A stretch of DNA of 64,000 nucleotides from Vampirovibrionaceae bacterium NZW_1234 (GCA_041697335.1 JBGUGD010000038.1:32001-96000); one strand, 5' to 3'; positions 3,352 to 63,475 are shown, numbered from the stretch's first letter. Notes: generated from the sequence alone by a model not told the origin. A program made the numbers and translations.

Positions 3352-4023
3352 ATGAAAGTCGGGTTGAGGGTGAACACCTTTATTCAGTCTGCTAACCAGC
3401 TATATCCCTCCGCCCCTGTCAGATTCGGGCAAGAAAATCAGACTCCTGATTTTTCCGACGAGGACGACCTATTTTTTAATAATGAAAATCCTCCGGACAA
3501 CGCTGACAGTTTGCGTGACATTTGCAAAGCCTTTGGGGGGATTACCTACGAGCCCTCCGAGATGATGGCTCCCCATAATACGCTCCGAGAACTGACAACA
3601 GATGATTTAAAAGAGATGGCTGAAAACGGCTCCCGTAATTTTCGGGTTTGGCTTGAGTTGGCGACACGTTATCAACATGGACGCGAAACACCTCGGGATA
3701 TTAAACAGGCAGAGCAATGTTATCGTACGGCCAGTAAAATGGCACCCGAGGGCAAGTATTGGTGTGCCATCTTTCTGCTGAACGAATTAGCCATGACAGA
3801 GCACGTGCCGTTATCCACTCAATTCGGAAACGCGTTTCGCCGAAAGCCATGGCCCACGCCGCTTCAAGCCGAAGCATATCAACTGTTTTATTTGGCATCC
3901 ATTAGTGACCAGTCACGATACGAAGTTCAAGAGGCGGTTATTGAGCGCCAAAAGCTGGAACAGCAACTGGCACCCAAGGCCTTACTGGCACTTCGTTTGG
4001 CTTTACAAAAGAAAAAAACATAA
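3352..4023 (+). CDS. Sel1-like repeat protein with RFG leader
   Basis: LATRYQHGRETPRDIKQAEQCYRTA matches the Sel1 repeat pattern; APVRFG near residue 25. Confidence 0.65.
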   Translation: MKVGLRVNTFIQSANQLYPSAPVRFGQENQTPDFSDEDDLFFNNENPPDNADSLRDICKAFGGITYEPSEMMAPHNTLRELTTDDLKEMAENGSRNFRVWLELATRYQHGRETPRDIKQAEQCYRTASKMAPEGKYWCAIFLLNELAMTEHVPLSTQFGNAFRRKPWPTPLQAEAYQLFYLASISDQSRYEVQEAVIERQKLEQQLAPKALLALRLALQKKKT

Positions 4024-4231
4024 TCCGTACTTTTCTGCCGACAACGTTGAAGACCCATCGATTCTGGTGAACACCGTCCATAATTATTTGTTTATATAAA
4101 TTAACAAAACATCATCAAATTCCGTACACCGGTTTTTATGCCTGTATAGGAATAGAGAGACCCATTTGGCATGCCTGTGGCTAAAATGCCCGCTGCCTGA
4201 ATTGGGAAAACAGGAAAGAGAGGAAACGTAG

Positions 4232-5230
4232 ATGTCCATTGGTGGCAGTGCCATTAATATGAACCAGGCAATGGGTATTCAACAGTCGTTGAATACGGAT
4301 TTGGCTGCTCGCCGCCAATTGCTCACCAACCCTGCAATTTCAGGATATACCGACCGTAAACTGTCCAGTGCTCTGGCTCAGGCAAACTCTATCTTTAATA
4401 GCCTGCAAGGTGGCGGTCTTGGCGGAGGCCTCGACGTGCTCTCCACATTAGGTGGAGTCGGCCTCGAAAGCATGAATTTGTACGGTCTTGGCGCCCTCGG
4501 CTTAGGGCGTTACGATTCGTTTAATAATGATGTTCTTTTAAACCAGGTTCTGAGCCCAACCTCGCAATTAGGGCAAGGACTGGAAGCCTTGAGTGGCCCG
4601 GGCACCATGGCCGGAAACTTAATGGCCAAGGCAAAGCAAACCGCCCTTCAGCAGTCACAGCAACAGCTTGCGCAGCTGAATCAAACCTATGCTCAAACGG
4701 TTCAGACCTTACAACTCAAGCAGCGTTTCGGTATTCCCATTATGCAGCAGGAGCTGGTCCAGTTTCAGATGCTCCAGCAGACCTATGCTCAAGCGGTACA
4801 ACAGTATCAGCGAACCGTATTACAATTCCAAGCACCCCAAATGCAGCAACAACCCGCATTCGGCGGTTCTCCCTTTGCCGGCATGACAAGCCAAGGTGCC
4901 TTAGGCGGCTTTGGCCAGCAGGCAGGCTTTGCCAGCCCATTCGGCGGCGGCGGCGGAGGAGGAGGCTTCGGCGGCGGGTTTGGCAGTCCCATGGGGGTCG
5001 GCGGATTCCCTGGCGGATTTGGCGCTCAGGCCAACCCCGGACTAGGAGATCTTGGCACCGTATGGGGCGGCGGCGGATCCGGTACGGGCTTTGGAGGTGT
5101 TCCCATCACCTCTGGCGGAGGTGTATTCGGTTCAACACCAACCTATAGTTTTCAACCCAGCTATGGCCAAGCCATCCTCGGCCCTCAGTTCGGCATGGTA
5201 CAAGGTCAACCCCAGAGAGCCTTTTTCTAA
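4232..5230 (+). CDS. Gly/Gln/Phe-rich low-complexity hypothetical protein
   Basis: 332-aa ORF with upstream gagagga RBS; Q-rich helical centre, FG-rich tail. Confidence 0.75.
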   Translation: MSIGGSAINMNQAMGIQQSLNTDLAARRQLLTNPAISGYTDRKLSSALAQANSIFNSLQGGGLGGGLDVLSTLGGVGLESMNLYGLGALGLGRYDSFNNDVLLNQVLSPTSQLGQGLEALSGPGTMAGNLMAKAKQTALQQSQQQLAQLNQTYAQTVQTLQLKQRFGIPIMQQELVQFQMLQQTYAQAVQQYQRTVLQFQAPQMQQQPAFGGSPFAGMTSQGALGGFGQQAGFASPFGGGGGGGGFGGGFGSPMGVGGFPGGFGAQANPGLGDLGTVWGGGGSGTGFGGVPITSGGGVFGSTPTYSFQPSYGQAILGPQFGMVQGQPQRAFF

Positions 5231-5236
5231 AGCCGT

Positions 5237-14793: not shown

Positions 14794-14972
14794 ATTACTT
14801 AGGTATTACAAATATAGTGAGGCAATGTACATAATAGGATATCAATTCAAGAAATCAATATGATTTGAATAAATTATACATAGTTGTTTAAAAAATCGGA
14901 GGTGTGATTTTGATGTTACCTCGACTTTTGAAACGAAATTAATGTTTACAACTATCTTAAAAAAGCCCGCCA

Positions 14973-17264: not shown

Positions 17265-18200
17265 TCAAATCGTTCTTTTCAGTCCGGGTAATTGGGCATT
17301 CTCGGGGAGGTACCCAATATCCATCAGCCCAAACCCTTTTTTAAACTCGCTGTAGCTTAACTGCATCACCTTGGAACCCAAATGGGGATTCAGCACTTTC
17401 ACGGTCTGATACGTCGGATCAATATCGAGAAGCGAGTAGGCGTGGGCATCCAGGACCTCTACCCGTTGCCCCGTCAGGGTCCTTACCTCTTTCCCGATAC
17501 CGTTGACGGAAACCGTCACCGTCTTCATATACGGTGCCAACTGATTCAAGAGGTCAGACACGTCGACCTTTTCAAAGTCAATGGTCTCGGGATGTTTTCC
17601 GGTGAGGGCATAATAACCGTTACCGGAGCCTTCCAGGGCCGCTTGCAGCGACGGGTATCTCAGGGCCTTGTCATGTAAAAACCAGTTTCTCGGGGTCGGA
17701 TCCGACTCCAGATAAACTCTCGGCACCGGCTGCTTTTCATGAAGGGCGCGGGCATATTCAAAAATCGGCACATACAGCGGGCCGATCGTTCCGGCATAGC
17801 CCAACTCCTCCAGGGCCTTCTTGCGGGACACGGGAATCTGAACCTGGGTGTCACCCCATTTGGCATGAAGCGTCACGATGAAGCGATCGGCATCGACCTG
17901 TCGGACGGCTTTCTCCAGGCGCCTGGCTTTGACCGGGTGTGTCGTCAGGCTGTTCAAAAACGCAACCTGGGGACAATTCCCCACATTGCGCTGGCCGCAC
18001 TGGCCTAGCACATGGGCTTTGGCGAAATCGTAATCCTTGCAGCGGCGGGTCAACACAATGGGCTCCGGGTCTTTATCCTCAGTGGGCAAGGGTGGCGAGG
18101 TTAATCCAAACCGCACGCTCGTCTGAAGTCCGGGGGGCATTGCCGGATAAAATCTGGCGAAATTCGTCTGTATCGGGGTCATAGTCACCAGGGCCTTCAT
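17265..18200 (-). CDS. Calpain-like (C2-type) cysteine protease with RFG leader
   Basis: Q-x-x-x-G-N-C (QRNVGNC), HAYSL and VLNPH catalytic-triad motifs; TSVRFG in N-terminus. Confidence 0.72.
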   Translation of the reverse strand: MKALVTMTPIQTNFARFYPAMPPGLQTSVRFGLTSPPLPTEDKDPEPIVLTRRCKDYDFAKAHVLGQCGQRNVGNCPQVAFLNSLTTHPVKARRLEKAVRQVDADRFIVTLHAKWGDTQVQIPVSRKKALEELGYAGTIGPLYVPIFEYARALHEKQPVPRVYLESDPTPRNWFLHDKALRYPSLQAALEGSGNGYYALTGKHPETIDFEKVDVSDLLNQLAPYMKTVTVSVNGIGKEVRTLTGQRVEVLDAHAYSLLDIDPTYQTVKVLNPHLGSKVMQLSYSEFKKGFGLMDIGYLPENAQLPGLKRTI

Positions 18201-18308
18201 GTCCTATACTCTCGTGCTGTATAAAATGCACTCAAGCATGGTTTTTGACAGTCCTTTTGAGAGCCGCCTGAGACCGTCATTTGATACCTCGAAATAAAGA
18301 TTAGGTCC

Positions 18309-19136: not shown

Positions 19137-19390
19137 TCTTCCCGGGTCTTTTCGCCTTGACGGTTGGCCTGCCCCCCCTTGCGGCCAATGGAGGCCATAT
19201 GCTCCCGATCCCGGCTCACGGTTTCGCCGCCTTTGCGGCCAGCCACACGCGCTTCCTCGGGGGTAAAAATATGGGCGGTTCCTTTTTCATGAGCCGCTTT
19301 ACCCCCTTTTCGGGCAATGGCTTTCAACTTTTCCGTGTCCATAGCCGCAAAGCCCCGTTTTGGTTTGGAATCCTGTCTCTTCTCGGTCAT
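19133..19390 (-). CDS. KGG-repeat general stress protein (YciG/GsiB-like)
   Basis: RGFAAMD, IARKGG, AGRKGG, IGRKGG repeats; aggag RBS. Confidence 0.9.
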   Translation of the reverse strand: MTEKRQDSKPKRGFAAMDTEKLKAIARKGGKAAHEKGTAHIFTPEEARVAGRKGGETVSRDREHMASIGRKGGQANRQGEKTRED

Positions 19391-24103: not shown

Positions 24104-25141
24104 TTATTTAATTTCGAAGGCCATTCTTCTTTCGAGGTCAGGACTTTTCGATTTGTAGAACGTTTTAAATCCGATAGAGGTGTAAAACTCCTCAGATTTT
24201 TGATCATGGACAGTAACAAATATTTTTTTAAAATTACGAGCTTTCGCTTCACTTAAAGCAATTTGGAATACGCTATCCATCAGTGTATTTCGATTCTGAT
24301 CCGAGTTAAGCAATGTTTCGGATAAATGGGTTTCCCAACTTTCCAAGGTAAGGAGTGTAGAACCAGGACGTGCATAATCAAAACCCAACTCAGAAACTAA
24401 CTTTCCTTGATGCAGAGCACGAATTTGGCATGGCATGGATTTTCCATTAGGATCAAACGTCGGGACGGCGAGTTCTATGTCTAATGTCACCGGTTCGTTA
24501 TTGGGGCCGGTAAGCTCGATTTTACGGGGATCGGGAAGAATACCCAGTAGAATAGCAACCAGAGGTCTTCCTGATGTTGGAGCCTGATCTTCAGACTTCG
24601 CATTATCAGGTCTTTTGGGTTTAGGGACAGGGATGGGCCTAGGAGCCGCCGAGGGTGATTCAACAGGTGTCTCTAAGGAAGGAGAGGTTGGCTTAAGAGG
24701 TTGTATAGTCGGAGCATTCTTCTCAATACTGGGTAAAGATTGCTTTCGCTGCTGAGGGCGTTTTCGTCGTCTACGTCGAGGGGCATCACTCTCCTTGGTA
24801 GTTGAATCTTTGGTAGTTGAATCTTTTTGAGGCTTGCTCGATTGATTTTTATTTCCTGCTCGTCGAAGCTGAAAGGCTTGATAGATCCCTTTAACCAAAG
24901 CAATGGGCAGCCAAAGAGGGGCACTGACAAAAGCAATTAGCCCGCCCAGCAGAAAAGCGAACTTGCTTGTCAAAGAGCCTTTCCAAAATACCTTGCTGTC
25001 CGAAGCAGTTGAGGACAGATTTTCATCGGATCCAAATCGAACTGAATCCTTATTCATTGGAGGAACCTGAAGCGGAGAGCTTGATTTTTCCACCATCGTG
25101 TAGGGTTTAGTTTGAAAAAAGGGGAAACTTGATTTGATCAT
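24104..25141 (-). CDS. RFG-leader protein with TM segment, poly-basic patch and GNAT-like C-terminus
   Basis: DSVRFG; hydrophobic FAFLLGGLIAFVSAPLWLPIALV; PRRRRRKRP; EAKARNFKKIFV...EEFYTSIGF resembles GNAT motif B. Confidence 0.6.
   Translation of the reverse strand: MIKSSFPFFQTKPYTMVEKSSSPLQVPPMNKDSVRFGSDENLSSTASDSKVFWKGSLTSKFAFLLGGLIAFVSAPLWLPIALVKGIYQAFQLRRAGNKNQSSKPQKDSTTKDSTTKESDAPRRRRRKRPQQRKQSLPSIEKNAPTIQPLKPTSPSLETPVESPSAAPRPIPVPKPKRPDNAKSEDQAPTSGRPLVAILLGILPDPRKIELTGPNNEPVTLDIELAVPTFDPNGKSMPCQIRALHQGKLVSELGFDYARPGSTLLTLESWETHLSETLLNSDQNRNTLMDSVFQIALSEAKARNFKKIFVTVHDQKSEEFYTSIGFKTFYKSKSPDLERRMAFEIK
24795..24824. repeat. 15-bp tandem duplication (encodes KDSTT twice on minus strand)
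   Basis: ttggtagttgaatct x2. Confidence 0.8.
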
Positions 25142-25906
25142 GATTCCAATTTGATACTTTCCAACACCGGATAAACGATTCTCAAGAAATCTTGGTGCTA
25201 ACGGTATATAAATCTTGGTTACATGCCGTTACAAAATTTAGATATTGATTTAAATATGAAATCAAATCAAGGAGGAAATTTTCGGTTTTTTGATTTTTCA
25301 AAGCGCTGAAAGCAATAGTCAATAACACGCTTACGAAATCAATTGAAAATAGGTTAAAAACAAAATGATGGCGTCGAAGGGGGCTATCAAGCGAAGTAAA
25401 TCTTCCAACCCGCCGAATAAAACACATCAACACCTACGCAGACCAGGCGAAACAATCGTATTGAACTCGCCAGCAAACAATGAATACAGATTTATGGCCC
25501 TCTCTGGTTGAGGATCGGATTGATGAACTCACCTATCAGCTTAAGCAGCAGGAATTGACAGAAGAAAAGAAACGTTATTTCACCAGCTTGCTTCATCGCC
25601 CCCCGAAGGCAGAGGGAGCGGGCGTTCAGCATGGTTGAGGCTCTCCTTCAAAAGGTCGAGGATTTACAAGAACCCACTCTCGTTAAAATCGGGTATCACC
25701 CCGACAAAGTCAGAGAGTGAACACCATAAGCTATTTACCACAGACAAAAACCGACATAGGTATACCTTAAGATTATTACCCTCAGAGGCTATCAACCCTA
25801 TCAAAATCTTAAGAATGTCTAAAAACGGGCATAACCACTATATAAATAGTATATAATTAAAGTATTCTCAGTAATGTAGGTTCGTAAGAAAGTGAAGAGG
25901 TACGCT

Positions 25907-27319: not shown

Positions 27320-28729
27320 ATGCTTCGTCAACGTATTGGTTCAATGATTCCCATGGTCGATCTGACCTGGATGAAGCCCCGTTTTCAGGGCAACACCATT
27401 GTGGTGGGCGCCCAGTGGGGCGATGAAGGCAAGGGCAAAATTGTCGATGTCCTGGCCGAATATGCCGATGTCACCGTGCGCCCCACCGGGGGCTGCAACG
27501 CCGGCCACACCCTGAAGCGCGGCAACGATGTGTTCAAGCTCCACCTGATTCCCTCCGGGATTTTGCAGCCCAACAAGCTGTGCGTCATCGGCAACGGCAC
27601 GGTCATCCACCCGGATGTCCTCCAGCAGGAAATCACCGGCCTGACCCAACGCGGCATCTCTCTGGCCAACCTGAAGATCAGCGATCGGGCCCACGTCACG
27701 CTTCCCCTCTACACTGCCCTGGACAAGGCCCAGGAAGTGGCCCGGGGCAACCAGAAAATCGGCACCACCGGCCGGGGTATCGGCCCCACCTACGAGGCCA
27801 AGGTCGCCCGCACCGGACTTCGCGTGGCCGACCTGTTCGAGCCGGAAGCCGTCCTGTCCGCCAAGTTGGCCCCCGTGCTTCGGGCCGCCAACCAACGCCT
27901 CAGCAGCCTTGGTCAGCCCGAATTCACCATGGACACCGTCCTGGCCGACTGCAAGCGCTTTGCCGCTATCCTGAAACCCTACGTCGCCGATACGGTCACC
28001 CTGCTCAATCAGGCTGTGGCCCAGAACAAGGAGATCCTCTTTGAAGGCGCCCAGGGGACCCTGCTTGATGTGGACTTCGGCACCTACCCCTACGTCACCA
28101 GCTCCAACGCCACCGCCGGGGGCACGCTCACCGGCTCCGGCATCGGCCCCAGCAAAATCGACCGGGTCCTGGGTGTCCTGAAGGCTTACAGCACCCGGGT
28201 CGGCGAAGGCCCCTTCCCGACGGAGCTGGACATTGCCACCGACACCGTGGGCAAGACCATGTCCGAGGTCGGGCAGGAACGCGGCACCACCACCGGACGC
28301 CTGCGTCGCTGCGGCTGGTTTGACGCCGTGGCCGGTCGCTTTGCCGTCCAGGTCAATGGCCTGACCGATGTGGCCATCACCAAGCTCGATGTCCTGGATG
28401 GCCTCGATGAAATCAAGATTTGCACCGGCTACCGCAATAAAGCCACCGGGGCGATCCTCCAGCACGTGCCCACCCAGGTCTCCCAAATGGCCCAGTTGGA
28501 ACCGGTGTATGAAACCATGCCCGGCTGGAAAACCCCGATTACGGAAGCCAAAAAACTGGAAGACCTGCCCGTCAACGCCCGGCGCTACTTGCAGCGCCTG
28601 TCGGACCTGATGGGCGTGCCGGTGTCCATCATCAGTGTGGGCCCCGAACACTCGCAAACCATTATTCTGGACAACCCCCTGACCTCGCCCAAACGGCAAG
28701 CCGCCGTCAGGGCCATCCCGCTGGCCTAG
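27320..28729 (+). CDS. purA: Adenylosuccinate synthetase with N-terminal extension
   Basis: GAQWGDEGKGK, NAGHT, IGTTGRGIGP, EGAQG.LLD.D.GTYPYVTSS, GTTTGR.RRCGW.D, TKLDVL; aaggag RBS before ATG 27320. Confidence 0.97.
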   Translation: MLRQRIGSMIPMVDLTWMKPRFQGNTIVVGAQWGDEGKGKIVDVLAEYADVTVRPTGGCNAGHTLKRGNDVFKLHLIPSGILQPNKLCVIGNGTVIHPDVLQQEITGLTQRGISLANLKISDRAHVTLPLYTALDKAQEVARGNQKIGTTGRGIGPTYEAKVARTGLRVADLFEPEAVLSAKLAPVLRAANQRLSSLGQPEFTMDTVLADCKRFAAILKPYVADTVTLLNQAVAQNKEILFEGAQGTLLDVDFGTYPYVTSSNATAGGTLTGSGIGPSKIDRVLGVLKAYSTRVGEGPFPTELDIATDTVGKTMSEVGQERGTTTGRLRRCGWFDAVAGRFAVQVNGLTDVAITKLDVLDGLDEIKICTGYRNKATGAILQHVPTQVSQMAQLEPVYETMPGWKTPITEAKKLEDLPVNARRYLQRLSDLMGVPVSIISVGPEHSQTIILDNPLTSPKRQAAVRAIPLA

Positions 28730-29024: not shown

Positions 29025-29543
29025 ATGCAAGTGACACGCTTCTCCGGCACCTACCGGATTCAGCTCAACGGCATCAAGCATGCCCCCTGGTATGACAGCA
29101 GCAAGCACGACACCAATAACCGGACCCAGGGCGAAGCCTTTTTAAACGCCCTCGCCACCCAGTTCTCGCAGACGCTGCCGGATCGCCCCCAAAAAGAAGG
29201 GCGCACCTACCTCGGCATGCCCCAGCGCCCCTACCGGTCTCTCCTTCTCCAGGAGAAGCATCCCGACAGGGACGCCTACCACAACGTGATGCGAGTCACC
29301 GTGGACGATGCCCACACCTACAGCTATGCCATTCGCTGCTTCGATGATCTGGATGCCCCCACCGAGCAAGCCCTCCAGGCCCTTTCGCCACAGATTGCCT
29401 CATGGCGAAAAAGCCCCAACGGCAGCTACGACCGAAACAAGCCCGACGACTGGGGCTGGCTGAACAACGCCACGGGCCTGACCCGGGAAGCGATGAATCT
29501 TTTCAAGGCCTTTACCGCCCGCTTTCGCAAAGACGAGGCCTAA
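29025..29543 (+). CDS. Hypothetical protein with RFSG leader
   Basis: aggagg RBS, MQVTRFSG start. Confidence 0.7.
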   Translation: MQVTRFSGTYRIQLNGIKHAPWYDSSKHDTNNRTQGEAFLNALATQFSQTLPDRPQKEGRTYLGMPQRPYRSLLLQEKHPDRDAYHNVMRVTVDDAHTYSYAIRCFDDLDAPTEQALQALSPQIASWRKSPNGSYDRNKPDDWGWLNNATGLTREAMNLFKAFTARFRKDEA

Positions 29544-30295
29544 TCAAGCGCCTTGATGTCAAATACGGCTTCCGGCGGCTGCTCCGGCTCCTGCTGAAGG
29601 GTCACTTCCAGGCGAGATGGCTTGGTATCCTGAAACACCTTCCGGAGCGCCTCAAGCGTCCGATCATACAGTGCCTCTAAGCCTTCCGGGGCATCTTCCG
29701 CGTCGTTCACCTCGGCAATCAAGTCATCCTCATCCATCTCAGGGTCCAGATGATGCTCCTTCTGGTAGGCCCTGGCAATGGCCAGCTCTTGTTTCCGGTA
29801 ATCGTCAACCAGGGTTTTGATCTGGGACGCATGATTGCCAAGGGCATCATCGGCAATAAAGACCTGTTCATTATGGACCAACCTCGGATCCGACACCGTT
29901 GCGGGCACTAAATCAGTGCCCGAGGGCTCAAAAATATACATGGCCTCCAGGCTATCCCCATTGATAAAGCGCTTTGTCCTGTCTTTCGGAGGGAGGACGG
30001 TTGCCATACGACAGTAGTCCCTGACCAACAGCGTATCGGGAATCACGGTAAACAGGTCCCGCAACGAATTCCGACGTGCATCTTCACGCAGGTGCGCTTT
30101 CATCAGGATATTAAACGCGCGCCCCACCGGATTGGCATTGGGGGGCTTCACACGTTGCATGCCCCGAACCGTTCCGTTAATCACCAGATCATCCTGAACA
30201 TTGGCCTCGGTCACCAGGTTATGGATTTTATCCTCATACCGAACCCGGTTTACATAATAGATGCCCGAAAAACGGGGTAACTGTGTCTTTATCAT
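29540..30295 (-). CDS. Hypothetical protein, tandem paralogue 3 (RFSG leader)
   Basis: Shares RFxGIY, VRD[YF]C, FI.DD..G.HA and PEQPPEA with two neighbours. Confidence 0.8.
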   Translation of the reverse strand: MIKTQLPRFSGIYYVNRVRYEDKIHNLVTEANVQDDLVINGTVRGMQRVKPPNANPVGRAFNILMKAHLREDARRNSLRDLFTVIPDTLLVRDYCRMATVLPPKDRTKRFINGDSLEAMYIFEPSGTDLVPATVSDPRLVHNEQVFIADDALGNHASQIKTLVDDYRKQELAIARAYQKEHHLDPEMDEDDLIAEVNDAEDAPEGLEALYDRTLEALRKVFQDTKPSRLEVTLQQEPEQPPEAVFDIKALD

Positions 30296-30351: not shown

Positions 30352-31113
30352 TTAATCCCGTGTGTGCGGGGTAATCCGGTAGCTGGCTTCCGGCGGCTGC
30401 TCCGGCACCTGACTGACGGTCACATGCATGGTCGCCGACACACTGTCTTGGTAAAGCGCTTTCATCTTTTCCTGGATGACTTCATGCACCAGGGCCGATT
30501 CTCCGGCGAAATCGTCATCTTCGTACAACTCGTCCAACAGCTCATCCAAAGGAATCGCCGGATCCAACTTCCGCTTTTTCCGATACGCGTCTGCCAGCAC
30601 GGCCTCCTGTTCCCGAAACTCTTCCACCAGGGCCGTCATGCGGGTGGCATGGTCCCCCTGTTCATCATCGGTAATGAAGATGTTTTCATCAAAGTAGTGC
30701 TTGGAATGAAAGCGCCCTTTGGGCAAAAGTTCCAAGCCTTTCGGGCTGAAGGAATGCAGGGAATCCATGGCATTTCCTTTGATATAGGTTTTCCGAGGGG
30801 GGTCCTGATTCAACTTCGGCGCCAGCTTACAAAAATCCCGAACCCGCATGACCTCCGGCATCGCCCCAAACATGGCTTGTATCAGATTAAACGACTTATC
30901 CACGATGAGCTGTTCTCTCATCCGATGATGAAACAGCTCACCCACGGGATGCCCCCCTTCAGGGGGGCGTATCTTGAGCATACTGCTCAGCGTACTTTCA
31001 ATAACAGCGTCATCCTGCGACGTATAGGTTTCCTGCACCCGGTGAACCTTGTCGTCGGTAACGACTTTCTGGACCACATAGATCCCGGCAAATCGAAGGG
31101 AAGCAATATTCAT
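30352..31113 (-). CDS. Hypothetical protein, tandem paralogue 2 (RFAG leader)
   Basis: Same shared motifs as neighbours; aaggag RBS. Confidence 0.8.
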   Translation of the reverse strand: MNIASLRFAGIYVVQKVVTDDKVHRVQETYTSQDDAVIESTLSSMLKIRPPEGGHPVGELFHHRMREQLIVDKSFNLIQAMFGAMPEVMRVRDFCKLAPKLNQDPPRKTYIKGNAMDSLHSFSPKGLELLPKGRFHSKHYFDENIFITDDEQGDHATRMTALVEEFREQEAVLADAYRKKRKLDPAIPLDELLDELYEDDDFAGESALVHEVIQEKMKALYQDSVSATMHVTVSQVPEQPPEASYRITPHTRD

Positions 31114-31195: not shown

Positions 31196-31960
31196 TTACG
31201 CAAGCACCTCCAGTCGATAGGTGGCTTCAGGCGGTTGCTCTGGAGTTTGCTTGACCGTAATGTGGAGTTCTGCCGGTTGAGCCGACTTGAATAACGTTTT
31301 AAGCTTGTCGACGGTCTGCTTGAAAGCCAGTCCAACGTCATTGGTGAAGTCTTCATTGCTTTCATACAGTTCATCGACCAGCTCCGCTAACTTCAAGTCC
31401 GAAGGCAGGCTTAGGCGTTGCCGATAGGTTTCGGCCACATCGGCTTCGTGCTTTCGAAACTCCGAAACCATTGCCTTGACTTGAGTCGCATGGTTGCCTC
31501 TTTCATCATCCGCCAGAAAGACCTGCTCATCGAAGTAGTGCCGGGGATTGAACTGCGATTCGGGAAGCAGACGATACCCCAACGGGCTGAAAGGCCCCAT
31601 GACCTTTTGCTGGTTGGCCGTCACATAGCGAACCCCAGGTTCTTCGGCTTTTAATGCCCGAGTGGAGCGACAGAAGTCACGAACCATCATTGTTTCAGGC
31701 TCTACCCCCAAAGCGTTACGCATAAAGTTTTGGGATTTCTCCGCTTCCAGCTGCTCGCGCATAACCGCGGCAAACTCTTGTCCCATAGTGCTCGACATCG
31801 AAGGCTGAATGGTCAGCAGATCGTGCATGGTGGCCAGAGCCAGCGCATCTTCTTGTGCGGTAAAGGTTTCTTCTGTTTTGTGGATCGTATCTTTGGCAAC
31901 GACTTTCTGGACCACGTAGATGCCGGAAAACCGAAGGGGAGCCAGGGGCAACGTCATCAT
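31196..31960 (-). CDS. Hypothetical protein, tandem paralogue 1 (RFSG leader)
   Basis: Same shared motifs as neighbours; aaggag RBS before ATG 31960. Confidence 0.8.
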   Translation of the reverse strand: MMTLPLAPLRFSGIYVVQKVVAKDTIHKTEETFTAQEDALALATMHDLLTIQPSMSSTMGQEFAAVMREQLEAEKSQNFMRNALGVEPETMMVRDFCRSTRALKAEEPGVRYVTANQQKVMGPFSPLGYRLLPESQFNPRHYFDEQVFLADDERGNHATQVKAMVSEFRKHEADVAETYRQRLSLPSDLKLAELVDELYESNEDFTNDVGLAFKQTVDKLKTLFKSAQPAELHITVKQTPEQPPEATYRLEVLA

Positions 31961-32116
31961 CTTCTCCTTAAGCAAATCAACTCTCGGATACCGAGCCGCT
32001 ATAAAACAGCGTCAGGCAAAACCGGGTGGGATGCCTCAATAAACCCCATCAATCATGAAAATTGCCTCAGCAATCCAAAGGATGACTGTTGGCATGCCCA
32101 ATCGACTGAATACAGG

Positions 32117-36483: not shown

Positions 36484-36602
36484 TACTAATATCCCCCGGC
36501 GATGCCGCTGTTCCCGGCCCGAATTTCGGGAGTTCGTCCTTAAGAGAAACGGTCGTTGCTATGCCTCCATCCGTTGCGTTTAAACACAAGATTTGATCCG
36601 CC

Positions 36603-37736: not shown

Positions 37737-37737
37737 C

Positions 37738-39269: not shown

Positions 39270-39363
39270 CGGGAATCAGCAGTCTCATGAAGGGAATGTT
39301 ACTTCAGTGTATCTTATTTGCGTTGGGTTTGGCTCCTCGTAACAGTGGAGACCGGGGTAGATG

Positions 39364-40485: not shown

Positions 40486-40532
40486 ACGCCATCCGTTACT
40501 CCAACACCGGTGTCTTAGTCTATCGTATCACG

Positions 40533-44998: not shown

Positions 44999-45127
44999 CC
45001 TCTTCCGTTCACAGGCCCGATGCGCACTGGGGTGTCCGAAGCCCGGGAGGTCGGTTTAAACCGCTATCTACGCAGGCTGAAGGGGGACAAATCGCACCGA
45101 GGCAGATATGATAAAGTAATACGTTGA

Positions 45128-48993: not shown

Positions 48994-49308
48994 TCTCTTT
49001 AATATACAAAACCGCCTAACACAAAAGCCCTGGTCCCTTTAGAACGGTATCGGCCCGATTCCATACCGTCTTTCATGATCATGAGCCCTCTATCCAATTA
49101 TACAAAACTTCTGCCATCCCAAAACGGTCCCCTCCCTCACCGTAGAAAGCGCGTCTGAAGTTCGGGAAAACGGCGCCCGACATAATCTACCCCACCTGTT
49201 TTTCCCTCTGATCAATTCTGATGCCTGCCTGGTTTTTTCTTGGATGTCTGCATTTTGTTCTGTTATCCGTTGCGTTTTGTTTTCGTTGAGAAAGAAAGAT
49301 ACCCCATC

Positions 49309-49713
49309 ATGAAACTCTCCTCCTCGCACCCCATGCGCTTTACCGGCGCGATCTTCAAAAGTACGCCCGGCCGTGAGGGCATTACTGTTAGCGGCAGCAC
49401 CTATAAACTTCTCAAACCCGGGCAGGTGGAATTCGACGGCAAACTCCTGGAGGAGGAATACCCGGATCTGGCAGCCCTGTCCAATGCTATGGTCTCGGAT
49501 ACGCCCCCCAGCATTCAGGAAAAACGCGTCACCCTGTTGCATGTGCTCCAAAAACTGGTCCACGATAAAAAAGTCACCTTGGACGCGACCGCTCACCAGG
49601 GTTTGGTGTCGCTCCTCGAAACCGGCCAGATATCCTCCTTCCAAAGCCCTCAGAACCAATGGGCCTGCGATCATTTTTTACCCCAACCCCAGCGCGGCCC
49701 GATTCGGAAATAA
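49309..49713 (+). CDS. Hypothetical protein with RFTG leader
   Basis: MKLSSSHPMRFTG start. Confidence 0.6.
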   Translation: MKLSSSHPMRFTGAIFKSTPGREGITVSGSTYKLLKPGQVEFDGKLLEEEYPDLAALSNAMVSDTPPSIQEKRVTLLHVLQKLVHDKKVTLDATAHQGLVSLLETGQISSFQSPQNQWACDHFLPQPQRGPIRK

Positions 49714-49762: not shown

Positions 49763-50713
49763 TTAACCGGCTTTTTGTACCTTAAACGAAGCCTTGGGTG
49801 AAACCAGGGCCAGCAGCGCCTGGGTATTGGCGGCAAACGAGTAATCCGCAAAGGCTGGCTCCACCAGCACGGCCTGTCGAATGGCGCTTAAGGACTGGCC
49901 CTCGGATACCAGCCGAACCATCAAATCCTGAAACGGGGTAATCGTGGGATTGGGGCCGGAAATGGTCAAGGCAGTCCCTGTGTAAACCCTGCCATTCTCC
50001 AGCTTCACGGCAAGCCCCGACCATGTTTTTCGGGAGGGATTGGGCAGATAAGATGCCCCGGCTGCCTGACGGGCCTGACGTGTCAGATACTGAGGGCGAA
50101 TCGGCTTAATCGCATGAGAGACGGCGATGGCAGGAGACTGAAACAGGTTTTGCTCAGGGGTCGCGTAGGAATATCCTACGGGGAAGAGCTGATCAATGGT
50201 CATGGTTACCATGGGCTGACCCGGGACCAGGATGTGAACGGGTAACGACCCATGCCCAGCCTCCCGCACAATCTGACGACACGGCCCACAGGGTTGCAGG
50301 GATTGAATCAGGCGTTGAATCCCCGTTTCCCCATGCTGTCGGGCTAAGGCCAGAACAAAGGGTTCCGCATGCAAGGTATCGGCAGGGGCGGCTCCTTTGA
50401 GTTCAATATTCGCGCCCAGGTAAGCCCTCCCACTGTTCCCAATGGCCACAATCCCGACACGTCGCCCGGTGACGGCAGGTTGCGAGATGGCCTGGGCTTT
50501 GGTCAGCAACTGAGCATAATAGGCCATGGATGCCGGATCATCGGGCACAAAGGGCAACGGCTTTTCAATGACCAGTGGACTGGACGTCTGTGTTGCCGCC
50601 TGGCTTCCCAGACGCAAAGACGTCACCCGAGACGGGCTCAGAAACCCTGGCTTGGTAGCGTGCTTCCCCGGGCAGATTGTGGCTACCCCACGCCCATACG
50701 ATACGGCCTGCAT
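49763..50713 (-). CDS. cdd: Cytidine deaminase, two-domain type, with N-terminal extension
   Basis: G.N.E, HAE and PCGPCRQ Zn motifs; second degenerate domain (ASY.P...SGLA.....G.VY.G). Confidence 0.8.
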   Translation of the reverse strand: MQAVSYGRGVATICPGKHATKPGFLSPSRVTSLRLGSQAATQTSSPLVIEKPLPFVPDDPASMAYYAQLLTKAQAISQPAVTGRRVGIVAIGNSGRAYLGANIELKGAAPADTLHAEPFVLALARQHGETGIQRLIQSLQPCGPCRQIVREAGHGSLPVHILVPGQPMVTMTIDQLFPVGYSYATPEQNLFQSPAIAVSHAIKPIRPQYLTRQARQAAGASYLPNPSRKTWSGLAVKLENGRVYTGTALTISGPNPTITPFQDLMVRLVSEGQSLSAIRQAVLVEPAFADYSFAANTQALLALVSPKASFKVQKAG

Positions 50714-52183: not shown

Positions 52184-52810
52184 ATGAGCATGACCGTGGT
52201 ACCAACATTCTTGCGTTTCGGCATCACGTTTAAACCGGTCCATATTTCATCGGGCAAAGGGCAGTCCAAACAGACCTACCGCCCCAACCCTTCGGACATT
52301 GCCGTGGGTTTCAGCGCCCCACTGACCGAGGCCGATTTGGCTCCCCTGCTTTCCCCGCTCAAGGTCATTGTCAAAGAGGCCACCGCGTTCAATGCCGAAA
52401 AACAGTGGCTTACCGTCCAGTTGCCCAAGGGCAAAACAGCTTCTCAAACCGCATGGGATGGGCTGGTCGATTTGCTCCAAAAAGGCTCTCTGCGCTTTTT
52501 ATCGCCACTGTTGACCCAACCCGGTTACCCCGAGTCTCCACAAATTCCGATCAATGAAATCATCGTGAAGTTCAAGCGCCTGCCCGGTGCTAAAAAATTG
52601 GCCCAGTGGATGTCCGGTCATGGCCTGGAGCTGAAACAGGCGGGTTCGGAATCGGGACACCTGTTTTACAGCCCCGGAAAACCGTGGAATGAGGTCCTGG
52701 CTCTGGCCGATGCCATTGACAAGGAAAAAAACGTGGCCTACGCCACCCCCAATTTCCTCAGGATCACCCCGGCTCCGAAGCCCTCCCCAGTCCCCAATAA
52801 AACGGCTTAG
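52184..52810 (+). CDS. RFG-leader protein with subtilase-propeptide-like C-terminal domain
   Basis: FLRFG at the N-terminus; NEIIVKF...V.YATPNF resembles S8 prodomains; no catalytic domain follows. Confidence 0.55.
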   Translation: MSMTVVPTFLRFGITFKPVHISSGKGQSKQTYRPNPSDIAVGFSAPLTEADLAPLLSPLKVIVKEATAFNAEKQWLTVQLPKGKTASQTAWDGLVDLLQKGSLRFLSPLLTQPGYPESPQIPINEIIVKFKRLPGAKKLAQWMSGHGLELKQAGSESGHLFYSPGKPWNEVLALADAIDKEKNVAYATPNFLRITPAPKPSPVPNKTA

Positions 52811-55161: not shown

Positions 55162-55480
55162 GTGATCTCGCCCCAATCCATCTTGTCCAACTATCTAACG
55201 TTATTGCGTCCCAGGTTATATTCCGAAATGTCTGTCCAATTTTATCGGTGTCTGTAACTGTATAAAAACAACGAATCTTAAGTTTTTGTTAATAAACTTT
55301 TTATCGTCCCCGGATATCCTCCGTCCCGCATTCTTCATTGATTGGTCTAAAGCCGCGCAGGAACAGGTTCGTCAGGCATTTAGATTCTTTTAATTAAAAA
55401 TCAATCAATTCAGGCTCACCCCATGTTTTTATTCTGGTAGATCGTATGTGTTGTCGACCATTGAGAGGAAGGAAGCAGAG

Positions 55481-55732
55481 ATGTCAGTCCAGTTCCCTAA
55501 TCGCGCTGCGACATCGGGTCCGCGTCAGCGACAGAGTATTTTCCAAAAACAACGAGCCATTGCCGACCGGCTGAGAGATCTCCTGTTGCAACAGCAACAA
55601 CGCTCGGCCCAAGCGCAATTTACCCCCCAGCCCCTGAACCTCAATTTTAACGGGGCCAATTCCGGTCAACAAAACCAAATGTCCTTCAATGCCCCCACCC
55701 CTTTCGGGGGCGGAAACCAATGGATTGGTTAA
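55481..55732 (+). CDS. Small Q/N/F-rich protein
   Basis: ggaagg RBS, terminator downstream; LNFNG motif shared with the divergent repeat protein. Confidence 0.65.
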   Translation: MSVQFPNRAATSGPRQRQSIFQKQRAIADRLRDLLLQQQQRSAQAQFTPQPLNLNFNGANSGQQNQMSFNAPTPFGGGNQWIG

Positions 55733-56188: not shown

Positions 56189-57298
56189 ATGATCCACCAG
56201 ATTCAATTCGGCCTAAAAACAGCGGGCCGCAAAGATCTTACCCCTGCTGTCACTCGGCAAACCCCGCGCTTTGCATCAAGTGCAGCCTCAGAGCCCACCA
56301 ACCCGGAAGGCGATAACAGTTCCCCGGGAGTGATTCTGGATCTCTCCGGCCAGGCCAAAGACGTGTTCCCAAGCGTGTCCGTGTCCTGGGAAAAGGAACG
56401 CGAGTTGCTGCCGCAAATCAAGGCCGGTGCCGAAGCCGATTTTAAAGCATTACTGGCCGGGAGCTCCACAACAGTCCCCATGGACGTGACCAGCAAGATG
56501 GGGGTGGGCCGTCATTATCGCCCACAAATTACGGTTACAGTGGACGAGGATAAAATCCAAGATGCCTACACCGTGCTGCGGAGTCTCCCTGGGGTTGCCC
56601 CGCTTTACACGCATCCCGATATCAGCACGCTTGGTCCCAATAAAAACAACACCCGTCGCTTCCTCTGGCAATACAAAGCCCTTCCCGAAATTCTGGTCGG
56701 CCAGGTTTGGCAGACCAAAACCCCGACCGGGGCCTGGACCAACCCCCGGGAGATGTCAGCTGTGGAACTCAAAGCAAACTCCCCAAACTACCCCATCATG
56801 GTCCACCTCAAAGATAAAAACGACGACCAAAAACGGGTCACGGCCTTTAACGAACTGGCGGCTCTCATCAGCAATGCCAAGACAAAGGTCAAAGGCGCTC
56901 AGAATATTACGCTCACCCCAACCCTGGTGGAAGGAAACAGCGGCGAGCAAGAGGTCTTCATCTACACTTCGGCCAAAGAGGCCAAATTGGCCAACAAAGT
57001 CCTTAATCTTGGATTGCCCGGATACCGTGAGCGCCATGTGATCTCTCGTCTGGGCTGGTTCTCCAAACCCCGATGGCTGTTCAACCTTCAGCGCAAGCTT
57101 CAGCCCAACACACCTGTCAGCGGCGTTATTGACATCCGGATACCGTCACTGCTCATGAGAAATAGCTCGACCCTCCGGGAATGGATGGACCGGCGAAACG
57201 GCATTAATCACGTTTTAGACTATACGTCGAAGAAGGTGCCCGGCTATACGCTACGCGTCAACATTCGGGACCAGGGCCTTCAGCTTCTGGGCGGCTAG
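56189..57298 (+). CDS. Hypothetical protein with IQFG / PRFAS leader
   Basis: aggag RBS; 369-aa ORF with low-complexity N-terminus. Confidence 0.75.
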   Translation: MIHQIQFGLKTAGRKDLTPAVTRQTPRFASSAASEPTNPEGDNSSPGVILDLSGQAKDVFPSVSVSWEKERELLPQIKAGAEADFKALLAGSSTTVPMDVTSKMGVGRHYRPQITVTVDEDKIQDAYTVLRSLPGVAPLYTHPDISTLGPNKNNTRRFLWQYKALPEILVGQVWQTKTPTGAWTNPREMSAVELKANSPNYPIMVHLKDKNDDQKRVTAFNELAALISNAKTKVKGAQNITLTPTLVEGNSGEQEVFIYTSAKEAKLANKVLNLGLPGYRERHVISRLGWFSKPRWLFNLQRKLQPNTPVSGVIDIRIPSLLMRNSSTLREWMDRRNGINHVLDYTSKKVPGYTLRVNIRDQGLQLLGG

Positions 57299-58156: not shown

Positions 58157-58525
58157 TTATCCAAAAGTTTCCAGGCGTCTCTTGCGGGAATCCATAAAGG
58201 CTTTGGCGACATCCTGATAGGCTGTGGAAGGGAGCGCCGCCACTTGTAATTCGCGCTTTTTCGCCTCGAGCAGAGCGGCCAGGGCATTGCGATCTTTATG
58301 CTTGGTATTGGTGACCAGCAACACCTGACCGTCCACCAAATCCAGAGAGCTGACATTCTTGTCGTAGGCTTGGGGCTTTTTCCCGTCAAAAACCGGATCT
58401 TTCGTCAACCGACTCATGTAATCCAGATAACCGCTCAAGCCTCGCTGATCCAGGGCACGCTCAGCGGCCGCTGCACTGGTGGAACCCAAAACATAAACCT
58501 GACCGAATCGAGGGGTAACATTCAT
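58157..58525 (-). CDS. Hypothetical protein with RFG leader
   Basis: MNVTPRFGQVY start. Confidence 0.65.
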   Translation of the reverse strand: MNVTPRFGQVYVLGSTSAAAAERALDQRGLSGYLDYMSRLTKDPVFDGKKPQAYDKNVSSLDLVDGQVLLVTNTKHKDRNALAALLEAKKRELQVAALPSTAYQDVAKAFMDSRKRRLETFG

Positions 58526-58612
58526 TCCGATACTCAGCTCCGCACTTGTAGGATAGCTAGGCCAATAAAATCACTCCAGGAGAAAAATTGCGCCATCTTG
58601 CATCGATTGGGC

Positions 58613-61062: not shown

Positions 61063-61193
61063 GGGCTTCCTTTTATGTTCTTCTGCATCATCAACCCGAG
61101 TGGATTTGGTGTATTATCGCGTAAGGGTGTTATAGAATAAAGCCTGATTTTGCGAGCCGTTGCTCATTTTAGAAGTGCCTCGGCTCAAAACGG

Positions 61194-63203
61194 ATGGAGG
61201 CGTCTGACAACCTGATGGAGTTTGCGGCTGAAAGCATCCAATCCATTACACTGATTCTGGCCGTTGCTGGTCTGATTGGCCTGCTGTTCAATGTTGTCCG
61301 CCTTCCTGCGGTATTGGCCTTTATCCTCACCGGGGTTGTCATTGGTCCGGGTGGGCTAAAATGGGTCGCCAATGAAGAAGTCATTCGCCATATTGCTGAG
61401 ATTGGCATTGTCTTTCTGCTCTTTGTCCTCGGTGCGGAACTATCCCTGCCCCGAATCAAAGAAATGCGGATTCATTCGCTTTGGGCCGGGGTACTTCAGC
61501 TCGTCATCACCATCATTATTATGTCGCTCGGCTTTACATTAGCCGGGCTGGACTTAAAGGCCGCCATCTTCCTCGGCGGTGCCCTATCGCTCTCGAGTAC
61601 GGCGCTGGTACTGAAAATTCTGGGCGATCAGAATGAACTGGATGCCGCCCATGGCCGCATTGCCATGGGGATTCTCCTGGTTCAGGATCTGGCCCTGGTC
61701 CCCTTAATGGCCTTTATGCCTCTGCTTACTGGGCATGGGGGTGAAGGCCAGATTCTTCAGGCTTTTCTGGTGACAACCGGAAAGGTCTTGTTATTTTTGG
61801 CCTTTATCGTGTTGATGAGCTGGCGCTTTGTCCCTCGCCTGGCGGATAGGTTTGCGGCCAAGGCCAGCAAGGAGATCTTTGGGCTCCTGGCCATTGCTTT
61901 TGGCTTGCTGATTACAATGTTGGCAGAGTGGATGGGACTGTCTCACGCAGTTGGCGCATTTTTGGCGGGCCTCTGCCTCAGCCAGAGCCTGGTCAGCCGT
62001 CAGATCGTCGCCGACCTGATCCCGTTTCGCGATGTTTTTTCCAGCGTTTTCTTCGTCTCCATCGGGATGCTCCTGAACGTGCCCTTTCTGTTGGGCAACC
62101 TGCCCCTGATTCTCTTGGTTACCTGTGTGATTGTGGTGGTTAAACTTCTGGGCATCAGCTTGGCGGTCTATTTTCTCCGGTTTCCGGCAAAAACCATCTT
62201 CTGGTGTGCCATGTCGTTGTTTCAGGTTGGGGAATTCTCGTTTATTTTGCTTCAAACCGGCCTACAGACCGGCACCCTAGACGGGGTCCTCCTCAATACC
62301 GTGACCAGTGCCATTGTGCTAACCATGCTGCTGACCCCCCTAGCCATCCGCTCTATCCCCAGCTGGCTCAATTACATCGAATCCGACGGCGGGTGGCTCA
62401 AAGGTCTGGAAAAGGCACTTCCTGGGGGTGCGATGCCCCCGCTGAAAGATGAAGTGATTATTGCGGGCTATGGTCCCATTGCCAAAAACGTCGCCCATGT
62501 ACTGCAAAGCCATGACATCGGGTTTCGGGTCATCGAAATGAACATCAACACGGTCAAGCGGCTCCAGAATCAGGGCATCCACTGTGTCTTCGGCGACTCC
62601 TCCAATGCCGAAGTTTTGCATGCAGCTGGGATCCAGGAAGCCAAGGTTTTTGCCATCACCATCCCGGACATCCGCGCCACGGAGCTGGCCATTCAAAATG
62701 CCAAACGCCTCAACCCCCATATTTACTGCATCGTACGCACCCGCTATCAGCATCCCATCGGGGCATTGTTTCAGATGGGCGCCGATGAAGTGGTCTACGA
62801 GGAGTTTGAAACCAGCATGAGTTTTATCTACTCCATCATCGATGTCTTTGGCGACACGGTCAGCGACAAGGAAAGCTACATGCTGCTGCTGCGGGAAAAC
62901 CGTAAATCCCTGATGAACGCCGGAAAAGCCATCGAGGAGCAAATGCGCTACGGCCGCTTCAGCGTCTTCAAAGATACCAAGATTGAGTGGATCACCATCC
63001 CCGAAGGCAGCAATCTGGAAGGCTCAACGGTGGCCGATGCCGCCCTGCGCCAGCGCACCGGGGTCAATATTCTGTCCATTCTCGATGAGGATGGCGTGAC
63101 GCAACTCAACCCCGAACCGGATACGGTGCTCAGATCCAACCAGGTTCTTGTCGTCATCGGCACCCTGGAGCAACTGACGCACCTGGAATCGTTGTTGTGC
63201 TAG
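61194..63203 (+). CDS. CPA2/Kef-type cation:proton antiporter with TrkA-N and TrkA-C (RCK) domains
   Basis: LSSTA, GILLVQD, GAFLAG, FFVSIG, Q.GEFSF; IAGYG, FGDS; LRQRTGVNIL. Confidence 0.92.
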   Translation: MEASDNLMEFAAESIQSITLILAVAGLIGLLFNVVRLPAVLAFILTGVVIGPGGLKWVANEEVIRHIAEIGIVFLLFVLGAELSLPRIKEMRIHSLWAGVLQLVITIIIMSLGFTLAGLDLKAAIFLGGALSLSSTALVLKILGDQNELDAAHGRIAMGILLVQDLALVPLMAFMPLLTGHGGEGQILQAFLVTTGKVLLFLAFIVLMSWRFVPRLADRFAAKASKEIFGLLAIAFGLLITMLAEWMGLSHAVGAFLAGLCLSQSLVSRQIVADLIPFRDVFSSVFFVSIGMLLNVPFLLGNLPLILLVTCVIVVVKLLGISLAVYFLRFPAKTIFWCAMSLFQVGEFSFILLQTGLQTGTLDGVLLNTVTSAIVLTMLLTPLAIRSIPSWLNYIESDGGWLKGLEKALPGGAMPPLKDEVIIAGYGPIAKNVAHVLQSHDIGFRVIEMNINTVKRLQNQGIHCVFGDSSNAEVLHAAGIQEAKVFAITIPDIRATELAIQNAKRLNPHIYCIVRTRYQHPIGALFQMGADEVVYEEFETSMSFIYSIIDVFGDTVSDKESYMLLLRENRKSLMNAGKAIEEQMRYGRFSVFKDTKIEWITIPEGSNLEGSTVADAALRQRTGVNILSILDEDGVTQLNPEPDTVLRSNQVLVVIGTLEQLTHLESLLC

Positions 63204-63475
63204 GGCCGTTTGTTATACAAATCCTGCGCCATTTGGTTAACCGCTGTATACAAGGGTTCTAAGGCAACCGCAACGCCCTTGAATATTGCACCGGAAGGCT
63301 GATTGTCATTTCCGGACTTATAGTAATTAATCACGGCCTGGGCCGCCGCTAAGTTTTGAAAAACAGTCGGGTTTATACCGTTATTGCTCGGCGTTTTTGG
63401 ATCTGGAAAGAAATCATCATCGGTTTTAATGCCAAAACGAACCTGGGGAGCTAACGAAGAAAAGCGAACCTGCAT
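63200..63475 (-). CDS. Small hypothetical protein with doubled VRF leader
   Basis: gaggag RBS; MQVRFSSLAPQVRFG. Confidence 0.65.
   Translation of the reverse strand: MQVRFSSLAPQVRFGIKTDDDFFPDPKTPSNNGINPTVFQNLAAAQAVINYYKSGNDNQPSGAIFKGVAVALEPLYTAVNQMAQDLYNKRP

Follow-up and report, generated by a model that had tools for sequence, protein, structure and literature searches.

Why should a dozen or so mostly unrelated proteins of one bacterial locus all begin with nearly the same few residues? The question is raised by a 64,000-nucleotide stretch of DNA from Vampirovibrionaceae bacterium NZW_1234 (GCA_041697335.1, JBGUGD010000038.1:32001-96000), here called the window, which is G000:C37:32001-96000 in our coordinates, G000 being the 3.70 Mb genome, 94.75% complete. 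A sequence-only reading of the window had reported the motif R-F-(x)-G near the N-terminus of 13 proteins, with a variant in a cytidine deaminase (cdd), and had taken it for a portable leader serving a dedicated machine; all of these residues are where that reading placed them. We think it rather likely that the motif is a tag marking the late cargo of a second, non-motile type III system derived from the flagellum and standing apart from the known injectisomes, and we infer that this second export machine probably secretes the tagged proteins. NZW_1234 is a member of the Vampirovibrionia, non-photosynthetic relatives of the cyanobacteria, and its order would be the Vampirovibrionales; the names on its purA matches are those of Melainabacteria, Vampirovibrionales and cyanobacteria. 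Neither the motif nor a second type III system of this class was found described in the literature searched, outside of which lay most subscription papers and supplements.

The N-terminal motif

The motif is real and genome-wide. Among the 3061 genes called with a dicodon model made for this analysis, the pattern RF.?G falls within residues 2-45 in 228. In 200 shuffles that preserve composition the mean count is 39 and the highest 56, which excludes chance. Outside the window it occurs in residues 1-45 of 216 of 3006 genes and in residues 100-145 of 37 of 2488. Per 1000 residues it occurs about 2 times in the first 20 positions vs 0.34 times deep inside proteins; the N-terminal excess is stable under three start rules, and C-termini show no excess. 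The window is enriched over the genome, with the motif in 12 of 55 called genes (the gene at 24104-25141 was missed by the caller and verified by hand). A DNA pattern for x-R-F-G-x, searched across the order, was drowned by background. A position-aware model gives the consensus [PVLMI]-R-F-[GSA]-[SGA], closing an acid-poor leader rich in S, P and T, and scores above 0.5 in 476 of the 3061 genes vs 52 of 2330 internal control windows; the overall consensus can be written [PVLI]-R-F-[GSAQ]-[ASG]. The strict leader set of 205 genes used below falls into 181 BLAST families, so that the leader proteins are mostly unrelated to each other, as the sequence-only reading had it. All 16 genes of a ribosomal block have leader scores below 0.2, and no gene of the glycan biosynthesis cluster at 32117-48993 of the window scores as a leader, which bears out the earlier remark that its enzymes lack the motif. 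Leader genes also cluster, the next neighbour being strict in 34 of 204 cases vs a base rate of 6.7%.

Several lines of evidence bear on the level at which the motif acts. Its R, F and G codons vary synonymously much like the rest of the genome, and by reading frame it is found in 239 of the 3061 genes in frame vs 82 and 117 in the other two. A start bearing a ribosome-binding site lies only upstream of the motif in 137 of the 205 strict genes and only downstream in 8, with both in 19 and neither in 41, so that true starts mapping behind the motif are the exception. For citrate synthase, both close orthologues found (73% and 61% identical) keep RFG, while the rest of their leaders cannot be aligned by eye; among 93 purA matches, KPRFQG is seen in the window copy only, and three others have extensions rich in S, P and T. 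From these results we judge that the tag is portable, is under selection and acts at the protein level. That it should be an artefact of over-long start calls or of composition is hardly conceivable: the starts do come from our own caller, a few matches are false (one in an Obg-like gene) and the looser model fires on the internal windows counted above, but the shuffles, the frame test, the positions of the ribosome-binding sites and the conservation in orthologues refute it.

The leaders have the composition that the sequence-only reading described: S, P and T together make up 31%, D and E 3.3% vs 9.6% in other N-termini, and a hydrophobic core of the Sec type is seen in 3 of the 205 vs 379 of 2109 other genes. 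A twin-arginine (Tat) motif is present in one of the 205. The N-terminal patterns of Pseudomonas syringae type III substrates are found singly in 107 (at least 10% Ser in the first 50 residues), 157 (I, L, V or P at position 3 or 4) and 158 (no D or E in the first 12), and all three together in 65 of 205 leader genes vs 96 of 2109 others. A double-glycine leader with a C39-ABC exporter was also considered; the genome has one stand-alone C39-like protein, a simple pattern search of it found no C39-ABC fusion, and the acid-poor leader is unlike the acidic double-glycine one.

A few residues past the motif the content of D and E jumps from 2-4% to 11-12%, as it might if the leader were a processing or organelle-targeting signal, resembling, in being free of acidic residues and rich in R, S and P, a plastid or mitochondrial presequence and cut near the R-F. 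We regard this as unlikely, though it could be combined with export. The cargo described below includes tricarboxylic acid (TCA) cycle enzymes, an M16 peptidase, FtsH-like AAA proteins and sigma-70-domain proteins, all of kinds that work in eukaryotic organelles. On the other hand, Gastranaerophilales-like loci mostly have S, T or N where the R would be, a hydrophobic strand begins directly after the motif in 45 of the 205 proteins, and many leaders have fewer than 10 residues, which is short for a transit peptide. Cleavage of mitochondrial presequences follows an R-3 spacing, unlike an F directly after the R.

A second flagellum-type export set

The sequence-only reading saw no machinery in the window, and a complete second flagellum-type export set is encoded elsewhere in the genome. 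There are two FlhA genes, one of them in a complete flagellum. The other, flhA', stands on contig C32 with flgF', flgG', flgB', flgC', a lytic transglycosylase, fliE', fliF', a gene for a 385-aa protein, fliH' and fliI'; contig C8 carries an SctQ-like (C-ring) gene with fliO'P'Q'R', C29 carries flhB' and a divergent FliA-like sigma factor, and C30 carries fliJ' and genes for a 270-aa protein and a 280-aa hook/rod-like protein. In the relative G001 the C32 and C30 parts are joined in one run. The 270-aa protein, a candidate ruler, matches FliK weakly in both orthologues tested (E 0.006 and 0.001, below the cut-off). The 385-aa protein, in the position of fliG, has no family match and no Foldseek match at E 0.001, and its N-terminal helical part gives only generic matches; its C-terminal part is weakly FliG-like, with four FliG chains matched at no more than Z 5.3-5.6. 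Each of SctR, S, T, U, V, N, J and Q (plus L and O) has a second homologue, and most of these reach neither the flagellar nor the Sct cut-off of NCBIfam, as for FlhA' with 678 bits against the FlhA model (cut-off 772) and 586 against SctV (cut-off 692). The rod genes flgB, flgC and fliE, which are flagellum markers, are all in the second cluster, whose transglycosylase begins with TRFSAG. The gene content thus demonstrates a predicted second export system beside the normal flagellum.

As to other routes, the genome showed no type IV, type VI or contractile system: no match to VirB4 (PF03135), VirD4 (PF02534), VipB (PF05943) or the phage sheath (PF04984) was found in this 94.75% complete genome, and its four PF00437 ATPases look PilB-, TadA- and PilT-like. 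The only routes found for Sec-independent export by an N-terminal signal are the two type III systems. The earlier proposal of a dedicated machine therefore holds circumstantially, with a type III candidate, while its type IV secretion system (T4SS) option has no VirB4 or VirD4 match to rest on. A CesT-type chaperone was not found in the genome, and the predicted complex of the FlhA' cytoplasmic domain with one leader scored 0.02.

In a tree of 78 rows, built by a quick search that excluded partial matches and some redundant outgroup loci, FlhA' forms a single long-stemmed clade of 28 rows with support of 100, on the flagellar side and outside the SctV clade. Its closest named relatives are from Gastranaerophilales and other Melainabacteria (62-67% identity) and group with family f7 in the tree. 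In a 34-row test, forcing FlhA' together with SctV costs 11.05 log units (p-AU 0.064, by the approximately unbiased test) and forcing it together with the native FlhA costs 2.29 (p-AU 0.18). Duplication of flagellar genes would fit best, at a level at which sisterhood to SctV is not rejected.

Some further observations were made in these loci. Two small paralogous orphans, at G000:C32:8784-9854 (L003:8787-9854), follow directly after fliI'; they belong to no family and have no match in the relatives' regions compared. The genome has two FliD caps (48% identical; C5:100662 and C5:141547) and two weak MotA-like matches (C4:11960 and C10:135710) beside three flagellins. Both f7 genomes examined have a second FHIPEP match that covers the FlhA cytoplasmic half only, in a frame of about 500 aa (G147:C1:1501950-1502969 and G005:C6:10760-11788), possibly a soluble FlhA-like protein.

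A shared promoter and its putative sigma factor

The leader genes form a regulon with a common promoter. GCAATTT stands upstream of 30 of 182 leader genes vs 38 of 1490 others, and the full model is GCAA(T/C)TT-N6-TTGAG-N-(C/G)GTTTT, i.e. GCAA(T/C)-N16-(C/G)GTTT, with window starts at a median of 80 bases before the ATG. The spacing of GCAA-N16-GTTT resembles that of promoters read by alternative sigma factors. Outside the training set a score of at least 12 bits is reached by 43 of 271 looser leader genes vs 62 of 2109 non-leader genes, and in two-fold cross-validation by 25 of 102 and 32 of 103 held-out leader genes (57 of 205) vs 46 and 64 of 2109 (2-3%). The canonical sigma-28 promoter was found before none of the 182 leader genes, nor before the flagellins.

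The candidate reader of this promoter is the divergent FliA-like sigma that adjoins flhB' on C29. In metagenomes, flhB' is present in 62 of 80 loci of the divergent sigma, and all 62 are nearer to flhB' than to flagellar flhB. Copies of this sigma usually number two in f1-f4 and f7 and one in f6, f8, f9 and f11. The second copy in NZW_1234 (G000:C16:18681-19630, 42-44% identical) lies behind a 61-aa open reading frame that has its own promoter site (15.8 bits), and this site suggests feedback control of the sigma. Elsewhere, a 117-aa orphan (G000:C26:143795-144148), with no match in the relatives' regions compared, has a start that resembles, by eye, that of an FlgM-type anti-sigma factor.

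The tagged proteins

Families were assigned by scanning 53 proteins, 40 of them leader candidates of G000, as well as 14 proteins of the window; the remaining leader proteins were judged by eye and by internal BLAST. No paralogue exists in the genome for 122 of the 205 leader proteins, and 24 of the 40 candidates scanned have no informative Pfam family. Those that do include citrate synthase, isocitrate and malate dehydrogenase, nicotinamide phosphoribosyltransferase, a CinA domain, a nucleotidyltransferase, an acyltransferase, hydrolases, a subtilase, M16 and M41 peptidases and AAA ATPases, FtsH-like ones among them. Leaderless twins exist for purA, cdd, citrate synthase, malate dehydrogenase, glutamate dehydrogenase (named by eye) and an aminotransferase. 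Two large proteins of 1077 and 969 aa (G000:C8:33261-36494 and C8:170821-173730) have sigma-70 region 4 matches, with a leader or variant and the promoter; if exported, they would imply a target with a bacterial-type RNA polymerase. A widespread membrane-type family of the class, without a Pfam match in the members scanned, is represented at G000:C7:71625, C34:120573 and C29:117610, L116:8742-10010 and L132:4951-6246, and the G000 members carry the leader.

Many of these families are normally cytoplasmic, and a common promoter shows co-regulation, not export; the tag might accordingly act inside the cell, as a degradation tag, a chaperone box or an address for the attachment pole, within one life-stage regulon and with no export at all. 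The lack of a detectable enrichment of the tag in several families that have the machine, described below, would agree with this. We hold such an intracellular role to be improbable, in view of the type III-like composition of the N-termini, the retention of leader copies beside leaderless housekeeping twins, the many orphans among the tagged proteins, and the tie of the candidate sigma to flhB'.

Distribution in the class

The survey covered 160 genomes of Vampirovibrionia in families f1 to f11, of which f5 would be the Obscuribacterales. An FlhA match is found in f1 (2/2), f2 (17/17), f3 (18/18), f4 (2/2), f6 (24/25), f7 (37/37), f8 (9/9), f9 (11/11) and f11 (1/1), and in none of the genomes of f5 (0/36) and f10 (0/2); a match to either copy is counted here, and for the rows sampled the type is borne out by the tree. 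The best identities are 62-89% or 42-49% for the second type vs 36-39% for flagellar copies. The tally of the divergent sigma nearly equals that of FlhA (22/25 in f6). No flagellin was found in f7 (0/37), f8 (0/9) or f9 (0/11), that is 0/57, and FlgD (hook cap), FlgI (P-ring) and MotB (stator) were found in none of 15 genomes searched in these families, while FliF' is present in 37/37, 8/9 and 10/11 (55/57). The hook/rod-like protein is found at E 1e-20 in f7 (6/6) and f9 (5/5) and not in f8 (0/4). With FlhA' and FliF' present where the filament, hook cap, P-ring and stator genes were not found, the second system is, by its predicted gene content, kept without motility.

In f7 and similar low-GC loci the tag takes the form phi-[STNR]-F-[GKQST]. 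Leader variants there have a promoter-like pattern in 11 of 43 vs 25 of 665 genes; since the pattern was drawn partly from f7 genes, the count to rely on is that from metagenomes alone, 7 of 27 vs 16 of 357 (p 4e-4). Tag and promoter are still present where the second type III system is the only one left. In f3 the two best promoter scores stand before leaders with PPRFAA and LQFSS, and orphans of f6, f8 and f9 often have, by eye, starts rich in S, P and T without the motif. The class-wide count of the promoter pattern (37 vs 2 in G000, 22 vs 1 in G149) is not discriminating, since it beats the reversed control in most families, f5 included.

The same distribution bears on the idea that the ordinary flagellum exports the tagged proteins and the second set has some other job. 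The Campylobacter flagellum does export non-flagellar proteins, a full flagellum is present in NZW_1234, and the N-termini of both its FliD caps match the motif model. Yet the leader variants occur with the promoter in f7 and f7-like loci, and the f7 genomes searched have no flagellin, hook cap, P-ring or stator; the flagellins of NZW_1234 carry neither tag nor promoter. Export by the ordinary flagellum is in our judgement quite improbable.

Proposed mechanism and points against it

The flagellar hierarchy, in which sigma-28 drives the late substrates after the switch by ruler and FlhB, serves as the model for the mechanism that we propose for the second system. The lineage would have built a non-motile second type III system from flagellar parts. 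The apparatus would be made first, after which the ruler and FlhB' would switch its specificity; the FliA-like sigma next to flhB', or its paralogue, would then read the GCAA-N16-GTTT promoter and transcribe the late cargo. A disordered, acid-poor leader ending in [PVLI]-R-F-small-small would be recognized at the export gate with no CesT-type chaperone involved, and the cargo (duplicate TCA, nucleotide and lipid enzymes, proteases, AAA ATPases and membrane-binding orphans) would pass through a rod/hook-like conduit to a prey or host cell or to the contact zone. A bolder form, which we put forward only tentatively, is that the Vampirovibrionia made a duplicate basal body into an injection machine independent of the injectisomes, with the rod as conduit and with its own sigma and motif, which in NZW_1234 would send at least 200 proteins, including a shadow set of metabolic enzymes and sigma-domain proteins, into prey.

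A number of observations weigh against export by the second system. Exit through the outer membrane lacks a candidate of its own: no dedicated secretin SctC was found in the genome, its only two secretins, one of which the second system might share, being in type IV pilus/type II and Tad loci, and FlgD, FlgH and FlgI are single-copy. The motif is missing from seven of the second system's eight axial-type proteins, and both flagellar FliD caps score 0.99; the tag would therefore mark late cargo only. Even in training just 79 of the 205 leader genes reach the promoter threshold, as do none of the structural genes of the second system. The step in acidic residues is what a cleavage boundary would look like, and type III signals usually have none; the export patterns of P. 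syringae are, in the available text of PMC3338616, not strictly required for secretion. In relatives, the motif is enriched, weakly, only in f11 (3 vs 2, p 0.02) and, as phi-x-FG, in 708 pooled genes of low-GC loci (10 vs 17, p 0.004); in samples of 56-326 genes from f2, f3, f4, f6, f8 and f9, all of which have the machine, neither RF.?G nor its variants are significantly enriched, these regional samples (19 relatives and 13 named loci) being too small to prove absence. The blank in f5 and f10, which lack the machine, does not discriminate, since those six families are not significantly enriched either. Perhaps only some members of the class have the motif, and the cargo of NZW_1234 may be unusually large. 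Kin are not independent, so the co-distribution is a pattern without a statistical test, and it may reflect one gain or loss among related genomes.

Comparison with known systems

With the injectisome, including the secretin-less form of the Myxococcales (PMC3459982, in the available text), the second system shares the export gate, the ATPase complex, the inner ring and an SctQ-like protein, and the absence of filament and motor. Like the injectisome, it would have Sec-independent N-terminal signals that are acid-poor and rich in S and P, and a dedicated sigma regulon, like that of HrpL, the sigma of an injectisome regulon. The second system of NZW_1234 differs in keeping FlgB, FlgC and FliE, in having no secretin of its own that we could find, in an FlhA' outside the SctV clade in the best tree, and in a signal with a short conserved motif. 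In the part of their text available, Abby and Rocha 2012 (PMC3459982) recognize a flagellum by flgB, flgC and fliE and an injectisome by its secretin; under these rules the second system, which has all three genes and no secretin of its own that we could find, counts as a flagellum, and it may have been missed for this reason.

Among the melainabacterial genes described as flagellar by Di Rienzi et al. 2013 (PMC3787301), the ACD20 cluster, flgG flgG flgC fliF fliH flhA fliI flgE, is ordered like the second system in G001, and MEL.A1 was said to be without filament, cap, junction and L/P rings. These genes were read there as a flagellum or one in decay, the lack of a filament in one gut genome being taken for decay; the term 'type III' does not occur in the main text of that paper. 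In NZW_1234, by contrast, the second system is a separate conserved set beside a complete flagellum. The gate recognition motif of the flagellum (Bryant et al. 2022, PMC8983047) is, in the available text, a short hydrophobic element of unchaperoned early subunits that docks at the gate and lies no fewer than 30 residues away from the start, whereas the leader motif lies before residue 30 in 149 of 205 proteins, has mostly S, P or T at +4, and is carried by non-structural cargo. For Vampirovibrio chlorellavorus, Soo et al. 2015 (PMC4451040) saw a pad and spikes by microscopy and assigned the spike to a conjugative T4SS, with no mention of 'type III' in the main text. Common to that model and ours is the need for a channel carrying hydrolytic enzymes into prey; the difference, which concerns NZW_1234 alone, is the genome without a VirB4 or VirD4 match.

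Flagellar export without motility has a parallel in the filament-less basal bodies of Buchnera, and secretion of metabolic enzymes into a host has one in the type III-secreted glycogen enzymes of Chlamydia. NZW_1234 differs from both in having a duplicate system beside a working flagellum, a class-wide sigma, and the motif. The second system may be the way in which the class feeds on other cells, and is a chromosomal, class-wide candidate for their attack or exploitation that would replace the model of a plasmid-borne T4SS. It may also be a second case of a flagellum giving rise to a secretion machine, one that still has its rod. No consensus has been agreed for type III export signals, and some 200 natural substrates with one motif and one promoter would make signal recognition directly testable. 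If export is true, the non-motile gut Gastranaerophilales that keep the machine would also be contact-dependent parasites or symbionts, a suggestion of host-dependent life in these uncultured organisms that could explain their resistance to culture.

Leader genes and other features of the window

The window holds five promoter sites of at least 13 bits. The first leader protein, of 223 aa (3352..4023, + strand), has APVRFGQ, with R-F-G codons at 3421-3429; the earlier label 'Sel1' corresponds to an existing match, a weak Sel1-like repeat at E 0.015. The 311-aa protein at 17265..18200 (- strand) has TSVRFGL (codons 18105-18113) behind a site of score 19.1 (18219..18252, -) and one paralogue, 26% identical, with a leader variant of its own. 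Its former label 'calpain-like' has no Pfam match behind it at E 0.1, and a homologue search returned the protein itself alone. The 345-aa protein at 24104..25141 (-) has DSVRFGS (25031-25039), a hydrophobic stretch after the motif and a weak GNAT-like C-terminus, and is preceded by a site of score 14.0 (25169..25202, -). The second purA copy (27320..28729, +; start at 27320 or 27374) has the KPRFQG extension (27380-27388); its leaderless twin, at G000:C34:166354, is 51% identical, and no promoter site was found upstream of the window copy. A 172-aa orphan with QVTRFSG follows at 29025..29543 (+; codons 29037-29045).

The three paralogues with LPRFSG (29540..30295, codons 30266-30274), SLRFAG (30352..31113, codons 31087-31095) and PLRFSG (31196..31960, codons 31925-31933), all on the - strand, have a predicted fold of pLDDT 42; the PLRFSG gene is first of the run, which is headed by a strong promoter site of score 28.1 (32036..32069, -). 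A site of score 13.5 (49208..49241, +) is followed by a 134-aa orphan with PMRFTG (49309..49713, +; codons 49336-49344). The second cdd (49763..50713, -) has an extension of about 45 aa with the variant SLRLGS (50606-50614); its leaderless twin, at G000:C38:19903, is 33% identical. A 208-aa protein with FLRFGI (52184..52810, +; codons 52214-52222) has a fervidolysin-prodomain-like match at E 1e-4. Two motif copies are present in a 369-aa orphan (56189..57298, +), IQFG (56204-56212) and TPRFAS (56267-56275), and again in a 91-aa orphan (63200..63475, -), QVRFSS (63458-63466) and QVRFGI (63431-63439), the latter gene having a weak promoter site of score 10.4 (63595-63628). Between these lies a 122-aa orphan with TPRFGQ (58157..58525, -; codons 58502-58510), which in an atlas look-up matches only clusters without a name and has a strong promoter site of score 23.7 (58562..58595, -).

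Low-complexity orphans rich in Q, G and S occupy 1828-2940, 4232-5230, 53722-55176 and 55448-55732; with borderline promoter sites (10-11 bits) in three cases and weak motif variants in two, they may be further cargo. The other genes of the window include a two-partner secretion pair (7381-16772) of a 2470-aa haemagglutinin-like TpsA and a ShlB-type TpsB, with at least five further TpsB/Omp85-like paralogues elsewhere in the genome; a 322-aa protein (25907-26875) of no Pfam family with at least four paralogues (46-69% identity); and a KGG-repeat stress protein, named by eye (19133-19390), with two close paralogues.

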